IMG/VR virus record: IMGVR_UViG_3300044723_007969
Source: a virus
Taxonomy: Duplodnaviria; Caudoviricetes
Strand: one strand, 5' to 3'
Length of the DNA: 64,000 bases
In this document: in pieces, positions 46,194 through 54,040 of the stretch
How positions within the stretch are numbered: position 1 is the first letter of the stretch
Layout: each line of letters opens with the position of its first letter
Translations under genes and position numbers: made by a program
The notes under the pieces: generated by a model
What the model was told of the DNA's origin: nothing
The model's input: the letters and a program-made list of their open reading frames with translations, nothing else
The model's database searches: none

Positions 46194-46212
46194 TTGCTAT
46201 TATTTATGTAAG

Positions 46213-46240
46213 AAAAGGGGGAGCGTGTAACTCCCCCTTT
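46213..46240 (-). terminator. intrinsic terminator
   Basis: AAAGGGGGAG...CTCCCCCTTTT hairpin. Confidence 0.75.
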
Positions 46241-46258: not shown

Positions 46259-46693
46259 TTATCTAACGTCGATGTTCGCTTTGTCGGAATCCTGACCTTC
46301 GTCAGTACCCTCTGCTTTAAGCGTGTAAGGTTTGCTACCTTCAGCACCGCCGGCAGTTACATAATGAATTGTGTTGTTGAAGAACTTACTTACGTAAGCA
46401 ACTGTTGAGTCATCTAAGATAACTTGTACACAGAATTCACCAACGCCACTCGTGTTGTCGTTCGCGAGTGAACCTGGAGCAACTGCTTTAAGCATCATTA
46501 CTACTTCAGTTGAATCTTCTAAGTGTATCTTGAATAACCTAGATGATCTTTGTGCAACAACGTAAGCCACTGTGGAATCAACTTTTGCTCCACCGAATGG
46601 TCTGTAAGCCGTAACCGCAATTTTACCAGAAAGGTCTCCGCCGAATGCGCCAGAGGCTCCTGATATCTTGTTTTTGTTTATTGGTCTTCCCAT
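46259..46693 (-). CDS. hypothetical late protein (possibly abundant virion protein)
   Basis: Has its own late promoter, AGGAG RBS and terminator; lies near the capsid gene. Confidence 0.7.
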   Translation of the reverse strand: MGRPINKNKISGASGAFGGDLSGKIAVTAYRPFGGAKVDSTVAYVVAQRSSRLFKIHLEDSTEVVMMLKAVAPGSLANDNTSGVGEFCVQVILDDSTVAYVSKFFNNTIHYVTAGGAEGSKPYTLKAEGTDEGQDSDKANIDVR

Positions 46694-46700
46694 TTGTTTT

Positions 46701-46789
46701 CTCCTTTAAAGGAGTCCAATCCTAGTTCTCCTAGGTACGCGGTTGTTATCCGCATAAGTCTTCTACAGTGGTAGAAGTACGTTTGAACT
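46701..46789 (-). promoter_or_regulatory. structured 5' leader (4-way junction plus SD-sequestering hairpin)
   Basis: Four stems are visible and the G-U pairs are on the minus strand; see findings. Confidence 0.6.
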
Positions 46790-46874
46790 GTGTGTATTTA
46801 TTATTTTTTAGGAGTTATAAAGTGTGTGGTTAAAAGGCCGATTCAATATGTCTCCATCGTCGACCTTTAAGTGA

Positions 46875-46982
46875 TTAACCTTGAACTTCCGGTACAGGCT
46901 GACCTGACCAAAGCATCCATGCGAATACGATCACGACTACTGCCGCACCTATCCATAGTTTCTTGTCTTTTAAATGTTTCAT
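46875..46982 (-). CDS. 35-aa single-TM membrane peptide (not in the ORF track)
   Basis: MKHLKDKKLWIGAAVVVIVFAWMLWSGQPVPEVQG; AAGGAG RBS; TAAATA at 47000-47005. Confidence 0.7.
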   Translation of the reverse strand: MKHLKDKKLWIGAAVVVIVFAWMLWSGQPVPEVQG

Positions 46983-47072: not shown

Positions 47073-47306
47073 TTATTTTCTGTTGTAGATATGATATAAA
47101 ATCCAAACTGCGACCAATCCGATCAACCCTTGATCAGAAAAGCCTTTCAGTACGCCCTGGATGTTTCCGATTACCGAAACATTTGGCCAGAACGGAATAC
47201 CTTGACCATTGAAAAGGATTTCTAAAACAATCCCCAACGCAATTAAACTTACTCCTACGTCGGCAATAGATTTCGCCCATCCTTTTACTTTCATCATGAT
47301 ATCCAT
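47073..47306 (-). CDS. small two-TM membrane protein
   Basis: Two hydrophobic helices; GGGAGG RBS; TAAATA at 47352-47357. Confidence 0.75.
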   Translation of the reverse strand: MDIMMKVKGWAKSIADVGVSLIALGIVLEILFNGQGIPFWPNVSVIGNIQGVLKGFSDQGLIGLVAVWILYHIYNRK

Positions 47307-47507: not shown

Positions 47508-48692
47508 TTATTTGAATTTTAAGTTTCCTGAAGTTACAGCAACTTTTCCAACGTAGTCAGCCGCGTTACCAAGAGATGATGCAGTGTTTGTTAACTCTAC
47601 ATAACCATATCTTGTTAAGAAACCTACTACCGGTTCGAAAGTTGATGGATCAAGAACAACGCCTGAAGACATTAAAGGTATGTAAGGACAATAGAACGCT
47701 GGAGCGTCTGCCTCACTTGCACCTTTGTAGCCAACTAGTACGTCTGTACTGTCTGCCGCGTAAGCGTCTACGTATACTCTCATCGCACCGTTTAAAGTTC
47801 CAACGAATTTAGTATTTGTTGGTGCTTCAAATGTACCCTCAGTCGATCTTGCGAATGCTGAAGTTGTTGCTGATTGAAGAATAGTTAAAGCAGTTGGAGA
47901 TACTACTGCGTAGTTTCCAGCGCCTCTTCTAGTTCTTGAAGCGATTTGGTTAGCAACTCTATTGATTAGAACAGCCAATGCCGCGTGTTCATCACCAACG
48001 AATGTTGCAGTACCTGATACAGCCGCTTGGTCAAAAGTCTCAGAAGCAGTTCCTGCCAATGTTCTTAATGATCCAATTACTTCTTGGTCGATCTCAGCAG
48101 TAATCTCTTGAGCTAATGCCGCCATGATTTCTGCTTCTACATCGATACCTTGTTGTGCTTGTGCATCTTGAGCCGCTTCAAAAGTCCATCTTGCTGATAG
48201 TTTTCTTGATTTAGCCTCAACCGCTTGTTTCAAGATTTGGATAGATAATCTCTTACCTGGTGTACCCTCTAACGCCGCTGTAGAAGAACCTTTTGCGTTT
48301 CCTTCTGTAGTGTCGTCTGCTTGGTTACCTGAGTAAGCTCTAGCAATCTTGAATGGAGATAATGCTTCTTCACCAGCCGTTGCGTTGTTGGCTACTGTGT
48401 CCGCGTATCTTATTCTTAGTGTGTGGATTTGACCTACAGGACCAGTCATCGGTTGTACACCAACGATCTCGTTCGCAATAACAGTCGGCATAACCCTTCT
48501 GATTACTGGTAGGATAACCCTGTTTAACGTAGCAACGTTACCGGCACTTGTTGCACCAGCAGTAGAAGCCTCAGACAAGTATCTTTTAGTGTTTTCTAAC
48601 ACTACGTCCATAGTCTTCTTCTTGTTACCTGCTAAACCTTCAGTTAGAGCGGCTTTAGTTTCGCCCCATTTTGATTCAAATATATCTGACAT
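47508..48692 (-). CDS. gp23: major capsid protein
   Basis: GVQPMTGP, VEAKSRKLSARWTFEAAQD, EITAEIDQE, FYCPYIPL and FEPVVGFLTRYG motifs. Confidence 0.97.
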   Translation of the reverse strand: MSDIFESKWGETKAALTEGLAGNKKKTMDVVLENTKRYLSEASTAGATSAGNVATLNRVILPVIRRVMPTVIANEIVGVQPMTGPVGQIHTLRIRYADTVANNATAGEEALSPFKIARAYSGNQADDTTEGNAKGSSTAALEGTPGKRLSIQILKQAVEAKSRKLSARWTFEAAQDAQAQQGIDVEAEIMAALAQEITAEIDQEVIGSLRTLAGTASETFDQAAVSGTATFVGDEHAALAVLINRVANQIASRTRRGAGNYAVVSPTALTILQSATTSAFARSTEGTFEAPTNTKFVGTLNGAMRVYVDAYAADSTDVLVGYKGASEADAPAFYCPYIPLMSSGVVLDPSTFEPVVGFLTRYGYVELTNTASSLGNAADYVGKVAVTSGNLKFK

Positions 48693-49785: not shown

Positions 49786-50418
49786 TTATTTTAGGTCCTT
49801 TATTATGTTGGTTAGTGCCTCCTTGAGGAACTTTTGTGCTTTTGGGTCATTTCTAACTTCAGCCGCCAACCCTTTTGCCATGTTACCACCCTTTGTATTC
49901 ATTAGGTGTTCGTAAATTGGCGTTGGGTAAGCACCTGGTGCCGAAGGTTGGGCAACAACATCGACTGTGATGATCTCGAAGTCTGAAACTTCGCCGCTTC
50001 CGTATTCGTTCATGTTTCCAGAACCTCTACTTGAAACGCCTAGTTTCACACCTGATTGCAACATAGTTTCGACAAGTTTGCCCATCGGTGTCGGTAGGAT
50101 TTTCATCTTACCGTATCCATTTGGTCCGTCCATCCACATTTCTGTGATCATGTGAGACACACGGTCCAAATTAATCTTTAAATCATCTGGGTGATCCACT
50201 TCACCTAACACAGAGTATCCAGAACTGATCTGATCGTTCAGTGTTTTAGTCGCTTTTGCGATTTCTGACACTGGGTAAACTCTCTGATTAGCGTTCTTGA
50301 TCCCACCTTGAATACAGATACCCTTCATGTACAAATCCTTACCGTCTTTTCCCTCGTGTAAGATCTGCACTCTGGCCTGATCAAATGTTAGATTCTCTCT
50401 TAGGTATAGTGATGCCAT
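49786..50418 (-). CDS. gp21: prohead protease
   Basis: KNANQRVYP, GEVDHP, LGVSSRGSG and DVVAQPSAPGA motifs. Confidence 0.96.
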   Translation of the reverse strand: MASLYLRENLTFDQARVQILHEGKDGKDLYMKGICIQGGIKNANQRVYPVSEIAKATKTLNDQISSGYSVLGEVDHPDDLKINLDRVSHMITEMWMDGPNGYGKMKILPTPMGKLVETMLQSGVKLGVSSRGSGNMNEYGSGEVSDFEIITVDVVAQPSAPGAYPTPIYEHLMNTKGGNMAKGLAAEVRNDPKAQKFLKEALTNIIKDLK

Positions 50419-52309: not shown

Positions 52310-54040
52310 TTATACCTGTCCGCCGCCACCTGTGCCACCTGGCGTCTGTCCACCTGGCGTCTGTCCTGGCTGTCCTGGCTGTGCTCCGCCTGGTTCTGGT
52401 GCGTCTACATCTGCTGTTGGCTCTTCGAATTGATCCAGGTCGGCACTGATACCCGATTGTGTAACTCCACCACCTCTCAATTCATTTGATTTAGTTTGTT
52501 TCTTCTGTGGTACATTGTTTTCTTCTGCCCAAAGTTCGGCATTTCTTGCCATTTCTTCTTCGCTCAATCCTAAATATCTTTTTAGTGCAAATCTTTTACT
52601 CATGTAAGGCAGTTCTGCCACCTGTGAAAATGTGTTGACCCTGCTTTGGTCCATTTCTGTCTGTCTGTACTGTGCAAAGTTCTGTGGTGGATTCAATTTA
52701 AGACCAAACATACTGTTGTCTATGTTGTATCCTTTTGATTTGATCCATAATTTGAACTCACTGTCAAATGTTTCTGCCAACATTGATTGTAATCTAGCAC
52801 AATACTTGTTGAATCTCAATTCCTGGATGTATGCAGTACCCACTCTACCATCATTGTACTGTTGTCCACCGTCTTCTGCACCTGTTGGTAGATAAGAACT
52901 TGGAATTCTCAATCCTCTGAACAGTTTGTTTGTGAAGAATCTCAAGTCATCTATCTCACCAAGGTTTGTACCACCCGGTAGTGTGTCCACTTTAGAACCT
53001 CTACCCTCTGCTGTCTGTGGGAAGAAGTAATCTTCGTTTATTGACATTGGGTTGTATGTTGCATCTATGAAGTTTGCTCCACCTGATGCACTTGGAATTC
53101 TTCTTTGGTTGATCTCGTTTTTGACCCTCTCAACGAACTGCATAGCCAAGTGTGTTGGCATGTTACCCACGTCTATGTAGAATACCCTTCTTTCAGGTGC
53201 TCTTTGAACCCTGTAGATGATGATTGCGTCTTCTAATAATTCTTTTTGTTTGTAAACCTTGAATACTTGTTCTAACACCGACTGTCCAAATGGGAATAGG
53301 TTGTCTAGACCATCTGACATTGACATGTGGATCACATGTTCTGCGTTTATGTTGTACGCATTCATGGTCTTGTAGAATCTTCCACCTGCGTTTCCGCCTG
53401 CGAAGCCTGACATGTTGTTTGTGGCACCTGCGTTTGCATAACTTGATCCGTATGCCGCTGTTCCACCGCCTGTGGTTCCACCACCACCATAAGTTTGATT
53501 TGGTGTGATCTGTGTTGCACTCAATCTCTGTAAGTTAGGGTTTATATCTCTGATCACATACTGTTCAGGTTTCTTGCCCTCTGATTCATTTACAACGATC
53601 CTGTCAACTTTGGCGTTGTCTATGTACAACCATTTCTGTGTTTCCGGATCCCTAACGAAGAAACAGTCTCCGTATTTTAATGCGTTCCTGAATATCCTAA
53701 AAATTCTCTTGTTGAACTTGTTTGACTTGGTCCATTGTTGAAGTGCCTTCTTGAGAAGTTTCACTTCGTGTTCTGTTGTCTCATCATTGAACACTATGTC
53801 GAACGGAGTTTCGTTCTCTGTGTTCTGCTGTGTCGAGAATTCCGCCAGGATGTCCAGTGCCGCATTGATCTCCGAGTCTGAATCCATTTGGTCATACTGG
53901 AAGTATCTCTGTATCCTGTTGGGGTGTCCTGTGTACACGTCCGGAAGATAGGAACTGTAATTCCTCTTCGCGAAGTTGGGCACTTTCTCTCCACTTATGG
54001 GAGAAAGGTTAGCGTCTTTAAAATATTTTTTCCAAGCCAT
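52310..54040 (-). CDS. gp20: portal vertex protein
   Basis: LLEDAIIIYRVQRAPERRVFYIDVGNMP, EDYFFP and TLPGG motifs. Confidence 0.97.
   Translation of the reverse strand: MAWKKYFKDANLSPISGEKVPNFAKRNYSSYLPDVYTGHPNRIQRYFQYDQMDSDSEINAALDILAEFSTQQNTENETPFDIVFNDETTEHEVKLLKKALQQWTKSNKFNKRIFRIFRNALKYGDCFFVRDPETQKWLYIDNAKVDRIVVNESEGKKPEQYVIRDINPNLQRLSATQITPNQTYGGGGTTGGGTAAYGSSYANAGATNNMSGFAGGNAGGRFYKTMNAYNINAEHVIHMSMSDGLDNLFPFGQSVLEQVFKVYKQKELLEDAIIIYRVQRAPERRVFYIDVGNMPTHLAMQFVERVKNEINQRRIPSASGGANFIDATYNPMSINEDYFFPQTAEGRGSKVDTLPGGTNLGEIDDLRFFTNKLFRGLRIPSSYLPTGAEDGGQQYNDGRVGTAYIQELRFNKYCARLQSMLAETFDSEFKLWIKSKGYNIDNSMFGLKLNPPQNFAQYRQTEMDQSRVNTFSQVAELPYMSKRFALKRYLGLSEEEMARNAELWAEENNVPQKKQTKSNELRGGGVTQSGISADLDQFEEPTADVDAPEPGGAQPGQPGQTPGGQTPGGTGGGGQV

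Follow-up and report, generated by a model that had tools for sequence, protein, structure and literature searches.

What kind of element is the structured leader that separates a late-type promoter from a small gene behind the capsid gene of an uncultured phage, and what might it do there? The question is raised by a stretch of viral DNA 64,000 nucleotides long (IMG/VR record IMGVR_UViG_3300044723_007969), here called the window, which comes from an uncultured aquatic myophage of the T4 superfamily. A preliminary description, made from the letters of the sequence, had recognized on its minus strand a cloverleaf-like four-way junction with a competing hairpin that hides the Shine-Dalgarno (SD) sequence, and had read the whole as a cis-regulatory switch, riboswitch-like or bound by a protein, which controls a monocistronic late gene.

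The helices of this description (P1, P2, P3, P4 and the SD hairpin) all proved to be present on the minus strand where it had placed them. The outer stem P1 joins AGUUCAA (46783-46789), which sits at the predicted 5′ end of the mRNA, to UUGGACU (46713-46719), which is a part of the linker AUNGGACU of the long forms of the leader. Both the sequence and the minimum free energy (MFE) fold give it seven pairs, one of them G-U (46789-46783 with 46719-46713). P1 encloses the hairpins P2 (CUUCUAC-CACU-GUAGAAG, 46760-46777, located by the Rfam alignment), P3 (46736-46756) and P4 (46721-46735). P3 has 7 bp and the loop AUAACAA: the hairpin AUGCGG-AUAACAA-CCGCGU (46755-46737) is extended by the U-A pair 46756/46736, and its flanks are the invariant GACUUAUG and CGUA. 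P4 may be drawn as CCUAG-GAGAA-CUAGG or, alternatively, as CCUA/UAGG with the loop GGAGAAC; the fifth base pair, when counted, is G-C. The anti-SD/SD hairpin CUCCU-UUAA-AGGAG (46701-46714) pairs CUCCU (46714-46710) with AGGAG (46705-46701) of the SD, AAGGAG (46706-46701), and the ATG (46693-46691) lies 7 nt 3′ of the SD. Two bases, C46714 and U46713, are common to P1 and the SD hairpin, and the overlap of 2 nt claimed earlier is thereby confirmed. The structure was also said to stand immediately after TAAATA; the order is right, but five bases (CACAC) lie between TAAATA and P1.

The MFE fold of the leader calculated by RNAfold consists of the four-way junction and the SD hairpin (-32.6 kcal/mol, z -5.1, 0 of 200 shuffles). 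The 77-nt junction alone gives -27.8 kcal/mol (z -5.4), and the SD hairpin alone, with -5.6 kcal/mol, z -1.5 and 17 of 200 shuffles, is unremarkable in isolation. In the Boltzmann ensemble of the 130-nt leader, the pairs of the SD hairpin have probabilities of 0.79-0.94, and P1 is a minority state with 0.04-0.21. Since the SD hairpin dominates this ensemble, P1 is in the minority and 2 nt are shared, the modelled competition of the two helices for the shared bases is real but mild.

The leader follows a T4-type late promoter box, AATAAATA (46795-46802, minus strand), in which TAAATA occupies 46800-46795. The T4 rule, which we used for the prediction of the start, centers the promoter box at -10; transcription is therefore predicted to begin about 6 nt downstream of the box, at about 46789/46788, that is, at the first bases of P1. 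The word ATAAATA occurs 15 times in the window, and 12 of the 15 copies lie at most 100 nt upstream of a gene start on the same strand, a zone that covers 5.6% of positions (binomial P = 4e-13). The copy before the leader is the thirteenth, at 102 nt, and has the longest leader of the set. In the leader alignments A1 and A3, TAAATA is invariant. In CBB, a related jumbo phage, ATAAATA is likewise found before structural genes, and its likeness to the T4 late promoter TATAAATA was noted there (PMC5259590). The window encodes a late sigma factor of the gp55 type as well (63114-63983, minus strand; phrog_12791, E 2.5e-69; phrog_234, E 8e-24), and so we find here both marks of a T4-type late unit, the TATAAATA-like box about one helical turn upstream of the predicted start and the gp55-type sigma gene. 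The latter adjoins SbcC-/SbcD-like nuclease genes of the gp46/gp47 type (60326-63110, minus strand), an arrangement that recalls the gene neighbourhood in T4.

The leader opens into an ORF of 144 aa, identified by translation (MGRPINK..., 46259-46693, minus strand). Directly after its stop codon there is an intrinsic terminator with an 11-bp stem, the loop UACAC and a U-tract (46211-46240, minus strand; -19.7 kcal/mol, z -3.9), and the next gene has its own ATAAATA box (46201-46207). By these signals the 144-aa gene is a promoter-to-terminator unit of one gene, driven by a putative late promoter, which agrees with the earlier statement that the message is monocistronic. Just upstream of the promoter box, a hairpin followed by UUUUAACC (46812-46880, minus strand; -16.9 kcal/mol, z -3.4) is a possible terminator and would shield the unit from read-through.

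The genes on the minus strand come in the order portal (52310-54040), two small genes, prohead protease (49786-50418), a scaffold-like gene, the major capsid protein gene of the T4 gp23 type (47508-48692, minus strand; phrog_138, E 8e-101), two small ORFs (46875-46982 and 47073-47306, minus strand), and then the leader with the 144-aa ORF. About 0.8 kb separate the 144-aa gene from the major capsid gene upstream of it, and the description of the leader as that of a late gene near the capsid gene stands. The capsid protein has 68-72% amino acid identity to those of the jumbo phages Phosso, PA5oct and GAP32. One of the two small ORFs upstream of the leader encodes a hydrophobic peptide of 35 aa and has its own AAGGAG; the other encodes 77 aa, with 62-96% identity in close relatives, and is absent from distant ones. 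Between the structural and the replication blocks we observed an ORF of 141 aa (59557-59982, plus strand), possibly the gene of a free-standing homing endonuclease; several PHROGs of such enzymes match it, and so does phrog_447 (labelled NAD synthetase, E 3e-41).

What, then, is the leader itself? The Rfam scan proposed in the preliminary description gives a direct answer. Positions 46691-46777 of the minus strand match RF02980, freshwater-2, a family of the type Cis-reg, over model positions 1-84 of 84 without truncation, with a score of 75.6 bits against a gathering score of 49.9 (E 3.7e-11). This is the sole Rfam family above threshold in the 64-kb window, and the match ends at the ATG of the 144-aa ORF. 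The leader of the window is a full-length member of the already catalogued RF02980 and is not new; the Rfam type accords with the cis-regulatory role that had been suggested for it. On its own, the copy in the window is one ordinary representative of an RNA family that is known but has yet to be characterised. The freshwater-2 motif was reportedly described in the 224-motif survey of Weinberg et al. in 2017. In the main text of that survey (PMC5737381) freshwater-2 is not named, and a literature search on the motif name gave no relevant paper.

The freshwater-2 consensus comprises three hairpins and an unpaired tail with AAGGAG and AUG. The Rfam model begins at P2, treats everything 3′ of P4 as unpaired, and contains neither P1 nor the SD hairpin. 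The window copy has the same core, linkers and loop, followed by AAGGAG and AUG, and the same position upstream of an ORF in aquatic metagenomic DNA; the conserved unpaired sequence of RF02980 is present in it as cUUAUG before P3, a P4 loop of the UAGAAC type and the AAGGAGAAAAcAAAUG tail. It differs from the Rfam family in that it adds a 5′-terminal strand which closes the four-way junction (P1) and a perfect anti-SD hairpin, and in that its P3 loop is without the usual CCCA. Its P4 loop GGAGAAC is a minority variant, seen in 15 of 145 leaders, whereas the family consensus is (C/A)UAGAAC.

To which genes does this element belong in other genomes? A search with the protein only gave 21 IMG/VR loci, and in each of the 20 that were scanned a match to RF02980 ended at the ATG. 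Conservation of the structure upstream of homologues of the MGRPINK protein, on which the earlier reading depended, was therefore found at 20 of 20 loci. More leaders were obtained from DNA-pattern scans, and after the removal of duplicates 145 distinct leaders were available for comparison. Behind every true match to the RNA pattern the ORF starts with M(G/A)R(P/S/A). The motif is thus tied strictly to one uncharacterised family of small proteins in the head-gene block, and it never stands beside enzymes or transporters. The same synteny (portal, protease, scaffold, capsid, leader with its gene, three more genes) is kept in about 70 loci. Across the relatives the capsid protein keeps 77-93% identity and the small protein falls to about 20%. 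At one locus, L220:731-1281 (minus strand), two leader-plus-gene units (123 and 129 aa) stand in tandem, with a complete freshwater-2 on each. One lineage (L024, L060, L070, L088, L139, L117 and L106) is without P2: here the box is followed by about 12 nt and then by ACUUAUG, and most of the genes start with MAR rather than MGRP and have the weaker SD AAGGAA.

Among cultured phages, the three closest jumbo phages, Phosso, Vibrio 2.275.O and fHe-Yen9-04, had no match to RF02980, nor had any of 14 control genomes. When the genes after the capsid gene in these three phages were compared by profile with the 144-aa protein, no relation was revealed, and tblastn with three members of the protein family against 50,697 phage records gave no match.

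If the leader is kept for its structure, then we can ask which of its helices have been maintained by compensatory changes. As far as the alignments tell, the Rfam core P2-P4 is very well supported by covariation. P2 is a hairpin of at least 4 bp which ends just before ACUUAUG in 131 of the 145 leaders and has 62 different stem sequences. Among the 83 long-form leaders, P3 is paired in 100% of cells, with two pairs changing on both sides (CG/GC; UA/GC/AU), and pairing is likewise 100% in P4, where each of the four pairs has changed on both sides; P3 and P4 together have compensatory changes in 6 of 11 pairs. When all 145 leaders are taken, the inner stem of P3 occurs in at least 8 combinations and P4 in 27 different stem combinations, and the length of the P3 loop varies from 3 to 10 nt. 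The covariation score of the whole structure was 0.353, against 0.104 for shuffles (0 of 500) and at most 0.055 for slid registers. Between the stems, conservation is of another kind: no variation is seen in TAAATA, GACUUAUG, CGUA and AGAAC, and very little in the SD and AUGGG (alignments A1 and A3). The covariation that had been proposed as a check upstream of the homologues is strong for P2, P3 and P4; P1 is solid only in the clade of the window, weak in the other long forms and absent from the short ones. When RNAalifold was applied to a plain MAFFT alignment it recovered only P3, as P2 and P4 were misaligned there. An upstream ORF starting from the AUG within GACUUAUG was also considered and rejected, its frame and length not being conserved between relatives.

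The distribution of P1 follows the length of the spacer behind the core. We distinguish short forms, with 1-13 nt from P4 to the SD, and long forms, with 14-18 nt and the consensus AUNGGACU(C/U/A)CU; P1 is possible in the long forms only and nonexistent in the short ones. In the P1 register, 5′ GU(U)C with AUNGGAC, 80% of cells pair, versus 32-50% in slid registers; this register was chosen by us, and 0 of 5000 shuffles reached it, relatedness being uncorrected. One P1 position changes between A-U (32 leaders), G-C (15) and G-U (4), with 36 non-pairs. The clade of the window has six to seven clean pairs in P1, about 35% of long forms have two central mismatches, and in a sister clade P1 is shifted 3′, to CAGAG/CUCUG, the anti-SD itself. 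The closing stem, which had been presented as a feature of the element, is therefore a trait of sub-clades only and not of the family.

In 131 of the 145 unique leaders the G of GU(U)C lies 4-6 nt past TAAATA. Such a position could reflect a paired 5′ end of the transcript, and it would equally fit a preference of the polymerase for its start region. In the short forms we considered a pairing of the 5′ GU(U)C with the start AUGGGAC, and it was set aside as only partial and without clear support. The long-form linker AUNGGAC (46713-46720, minus strand, in the window) resembles the start region AUGGGAC of many short-form genes, and may have arisen by duplication of the initiation region. The arginine codon is AGA (AUGGGAAGACC) in all long forms seen and CGU in many short forms.

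In a passive role, the leader would only stabilize a very highly expressed late mRNA, its paired 5′ end giving protection against RNase E, and would present a strong SD, with no trans-acting partner and no switching. The action of RNase E is 5′-end-dependent, according to works that PMC3014915 lists as B18 and B19 and insofar as they are represented there. A passive leader is in line with the 5′ strand of P1 at the predicted +1 in most long forms, with the strong SD AAGGAG at optimal spacing, and with the unit's own promoter and strong terminator. We nevertheless consider it unlikely. For stabilization stems would be enough, whatever the sequence; the unpaired GACUUAUG, CGUAG and UAGAAC, however, show no variation or almost none, in contrast to the freely varying stems and to the protein, whose identity drops to about 20%. 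P1, moreover, does not occur in short forms, and about 35% of long forms have only a weak one.

It remains to consider the ribosome-binding site. Because the SD is invariant, covariation is not possible there and the anti-SD was scored by complementarity. The middle pair of the SD hairpin in the 83 long forms is C-G in 27 and U-G in 18, and is unpaired in 38; the short forms have no anti-SD and no linker. The predicted unpaired probability of GGAG is 0.18 in the 21 leaders with CUCCU, that of the window included, 0.32 in the 21 leaders with CUUCU, and 0.61-0.84 in the 103 others. Sequestration of the SD is thus a predicted trait of about 29% of the 145 distinct leaders, including the window's, and the SD-hiding hairpin, which had also been taken for a part of the element, occurs only in sub-clades.

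The P3 loop offers a different complementarity to the initiation region. CCCA, the complement of UGGG, is found in the P3 loop of 57 of the 121 leaders that end in AUGGG, and CCA in a further 34. In the nine leaders with AUGGC (Met-Ala) CCCA never occurs (0/9); three of them, and also L088, have a GCC(A/G) loop, which is GCCA in three cases and GCC followed by G in the fourth. These AUGGC leaders with GCC loops come from lineages with different stems and proteins. Among the 121 AUGGG leaders the GCC(A/G) loop is seen once, as a stem artefact. The association of loop and start has a Fisher P of about 1e-3 with relatedness ignored. The P3 loop of the window, AUAACAA, has no complement to the start.

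When both devices are counted over the 145 leaders, 74 have the loop complement only, 32 the anti-SD only, 12 both and 27 neither. Strong anti-SD and loop-start complementarity are thus largely complementary in their distribution, and this is suggestive of one function, occlusion of the initiation region, served by two devices. It is suggestive rather than proven because the swap of the CCCA loop for the anti-SD may be a single event in one clade. Since the SD and the start are invariant, the argument for occlusion rests mostly on conserved complementarity, with few independent compensatory events. The 27 of 145 leaders that are without either device at the thresholds used speak against occlusion. 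The anti-SD hairpin of the window, with its -5.6 kcal/mol against a strong SD, may by itself lower translation only modestly.

The reading that we favour, with a chance of nearly one half, is that the leader is a translational operator which occludes the ribosome-binding site and whose partner is probably a protein. According to it, the gp55-type box AATAAATA would drive late transcription of the one-gene message. Its first transcribed bases (A/GUUCAA) would pair with UUGGACU and form the four-way junction around P2, P3 and P4, and the CUCCU just 3′ of the junction would pair with the SD AGGAG and make the ribosome-binding site less accessible. In most relatives, the CCCA (or CCAU) of the P3 loop would pair with the UGGG (or AUGG) of the start to give a loop-to-start pseudoknot; the clade of the window would have lost the loop complement and would use the perfect anti-SD hairpin instead. 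A sequence-specific partner, most likely a protein and possibly the gene's own product, would then shift the balance between the occluded and the open state, in one direction or the other. Such a partner is proposed because GACUUAUG, CGUAG and the loop UAGAAC are invariant yet unpaired. A protein is favoured over a metabolite because the leader is linked exclusively to one non-metabolic gene.

This linkage also bears on a metabolite riboswitch, in which the three-hairpin core would be the aptamer and the SD hairpin or the loop-start pairing the expression platform. Conserved junction and loop nucleotides together with covarying stems are typical of aptamers, and the alternative pairings overlap the ribosome-binding site. 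We regard a riboswitch as very unlikely all the same, for the leader always precedes one structural-looking gene family in a block of virion genes, where a metabolic or transport association would be expected. The supposed platform, moreover, is not conserved across the family. In the ensemble of the window P1 and the SD hairpin compete; among the relatives these pairings vary from clade to clade, and the short forms do not have them. For T4-type phages, no characterised riboswitch is on record (PMC3014915). The earlier proposal of a riboswitch-like or protein-bound switch is supported in part, namely for a cis-acting leader of a late gene.

A tRNA-like structure recognised by tRNA enzymes, for example RNase P or the CCA-adding enzyme, is barely conceivable: the 77-nt junction, the 7-bp closing stem, the three arms and the 7-nt P3 loop of the window do recall a tRNA, but ARAGORN reported 0 tRNA genes in the window, Rfam gave no tRNA or tmRNA match, the leader has neither T-loop nor CCA, and in most relatives the closing stem is missing or broken and the P3 loop has 3-10 nt, so that the preliminary description was right in calling it not a tRNA. 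Chance complementarity in a functionless AT-rich spacer, for which the only argument is that the SD hairpin alone is no more than modestly stable (z -1.5), has a negligible probability in view of z values from -5.1 to -5.4, the Rfam E of 3.7e-11 and more than 140 distinct leaders with compensatory changes.

Could the putative partner be the product of the gene itself? Pfam and PHROGs contain no family for the 144-aa protein, a sequence search of the PDB gave nothing, and a Foldseek comparison of its model with the PDB had no match at E <= 0.001. The AF2 model, built with 42 relatives, is all-beta with a pLDDT of 82, and the protein looks like two small beta-barrels in it. VIA-align pointed to SH3/KOW/Tudor-like barrels with a best Z of at most 3.4, too weak for a fold name. 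Fold matches in BFVD are uncharacterised jumbo-phage proteins, including those of Atu_ph07 and two of fHe-Yen9 annotated as possible surface proteins, and an atlas search by features and shape returned only unnamed or E1_FCCH-tagged viral clusters. The family extends over more than 1000 metagenomic clusters, marine ones included, all of which are named hypothetical. In longer members of the family, at L062:5346-5963 (plus strand) and also in L141, the C-terminal end carries an E1_FCCH small barrel (PF16190, 40 bits versus a cut-off of 29.5), and other relatives of 211-370 aa have unassigned insertions.

The adjacency to the capsid gene, the fast divergence, the added domains and the strong expression signals suggest that the 144-aa protein is a virion-surface protein, perhaps a capsid decoration. 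A complex prediction with two capsid copies and the 144-aa protein had a score of 0.00, which counts neither way. The most conserved part of the protein is the N-terminus MGRP(L/I)NK(R/K), and the conservation is at the level of protein, since the Arg and Pro codons vary. It is possible, and in our opinion quite unlikely, that the free product binds the core of its own leader through this basic arm and stabilizes the occlusion, whereby synthesis would be coupled to consumption in assembly. Under such autoregulation, occlusion would be realised in two interchangeable ways, by the loop-start pseudoknot in most lineages and by the anti-SD hairpin in the lineage of the window. The conserved N-terminal arm is explained equally well by contact with the highly conserved capsid protein, and the 144-aa protein belongs to no recognised RNA-binding family. 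If autoregulation were true, freshwater-2 would be without precedent in the T4 superfamily as a structured leader through which a late virion gene controls itself.

With these data the orphan motif freshwater-2 is now placed as the leader of a late one-gene message with a T4-type late promoter. Its setting is the head-gene block of a widespread uncultured aquatic myophage clade with a capsid protein akin to that of jumbo phages. There it always fronts one fast-evolving small protein, and this setting makes the motif testable. If an operator of this conserved, structured kind does act on a late virion gene, late gene control would gain a further layer. The additions made here are the setting in a late gene of a phage, the restriction of P1 and the anti-SD hairpin to subgroups, and the support for occlusion of the initiation region as a common theme.

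How does the proposed translational operator compare with known systems? Riboswitches of the preQ1-II and SAM-II classes are pseudoknots that bury the SD or AUG. The pairing of a loop with the ribosome-binding site as the proposed means of control is common to them and to our leader, but the gene context of the latter is not metabolic and its sole Rfam match is RF02980. A second group of comparisons is provided by autogenous operators. The T4 proteins gp32 and gp43 act on structures in the leaders of their own messages to repress translation (PMC3014915). Like the pseudoknot in the leader of T4 gene 32, the gp43 operator and the leaders of ribosomal proteins such as rpsO (PMC3014915), freshwater-2 is a structured leader of one gene with conserved unpaired bases and a candidate pseudoknot that touches the initiation region. 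Unlike them, its product is without a known nucleic-acid-binding family and looks like a virion protein.

In the T4 mRNAs of e, soc, 49 and I-TevI, the SD or AUG is hidden in a helix (PMC3014915). The likeness to our leader lies in the T4-type phage, in the SD or AUG within an intramolecular helix, which is predicted here, and in the late boxes nearby; soc is a precedent also as the gene of a small capsid-surface protein. These T4 leaders have no conserved multi-hairpin core, unlike freshwater-2. In the T4 cases, furthermore, the late promoter lies inside the 5′ arm and late transcripts are without the inhibitory strand, whereas in the window the entire structure lies behind the promoter, and the inhibitory strand is therefore part of the late transcript.
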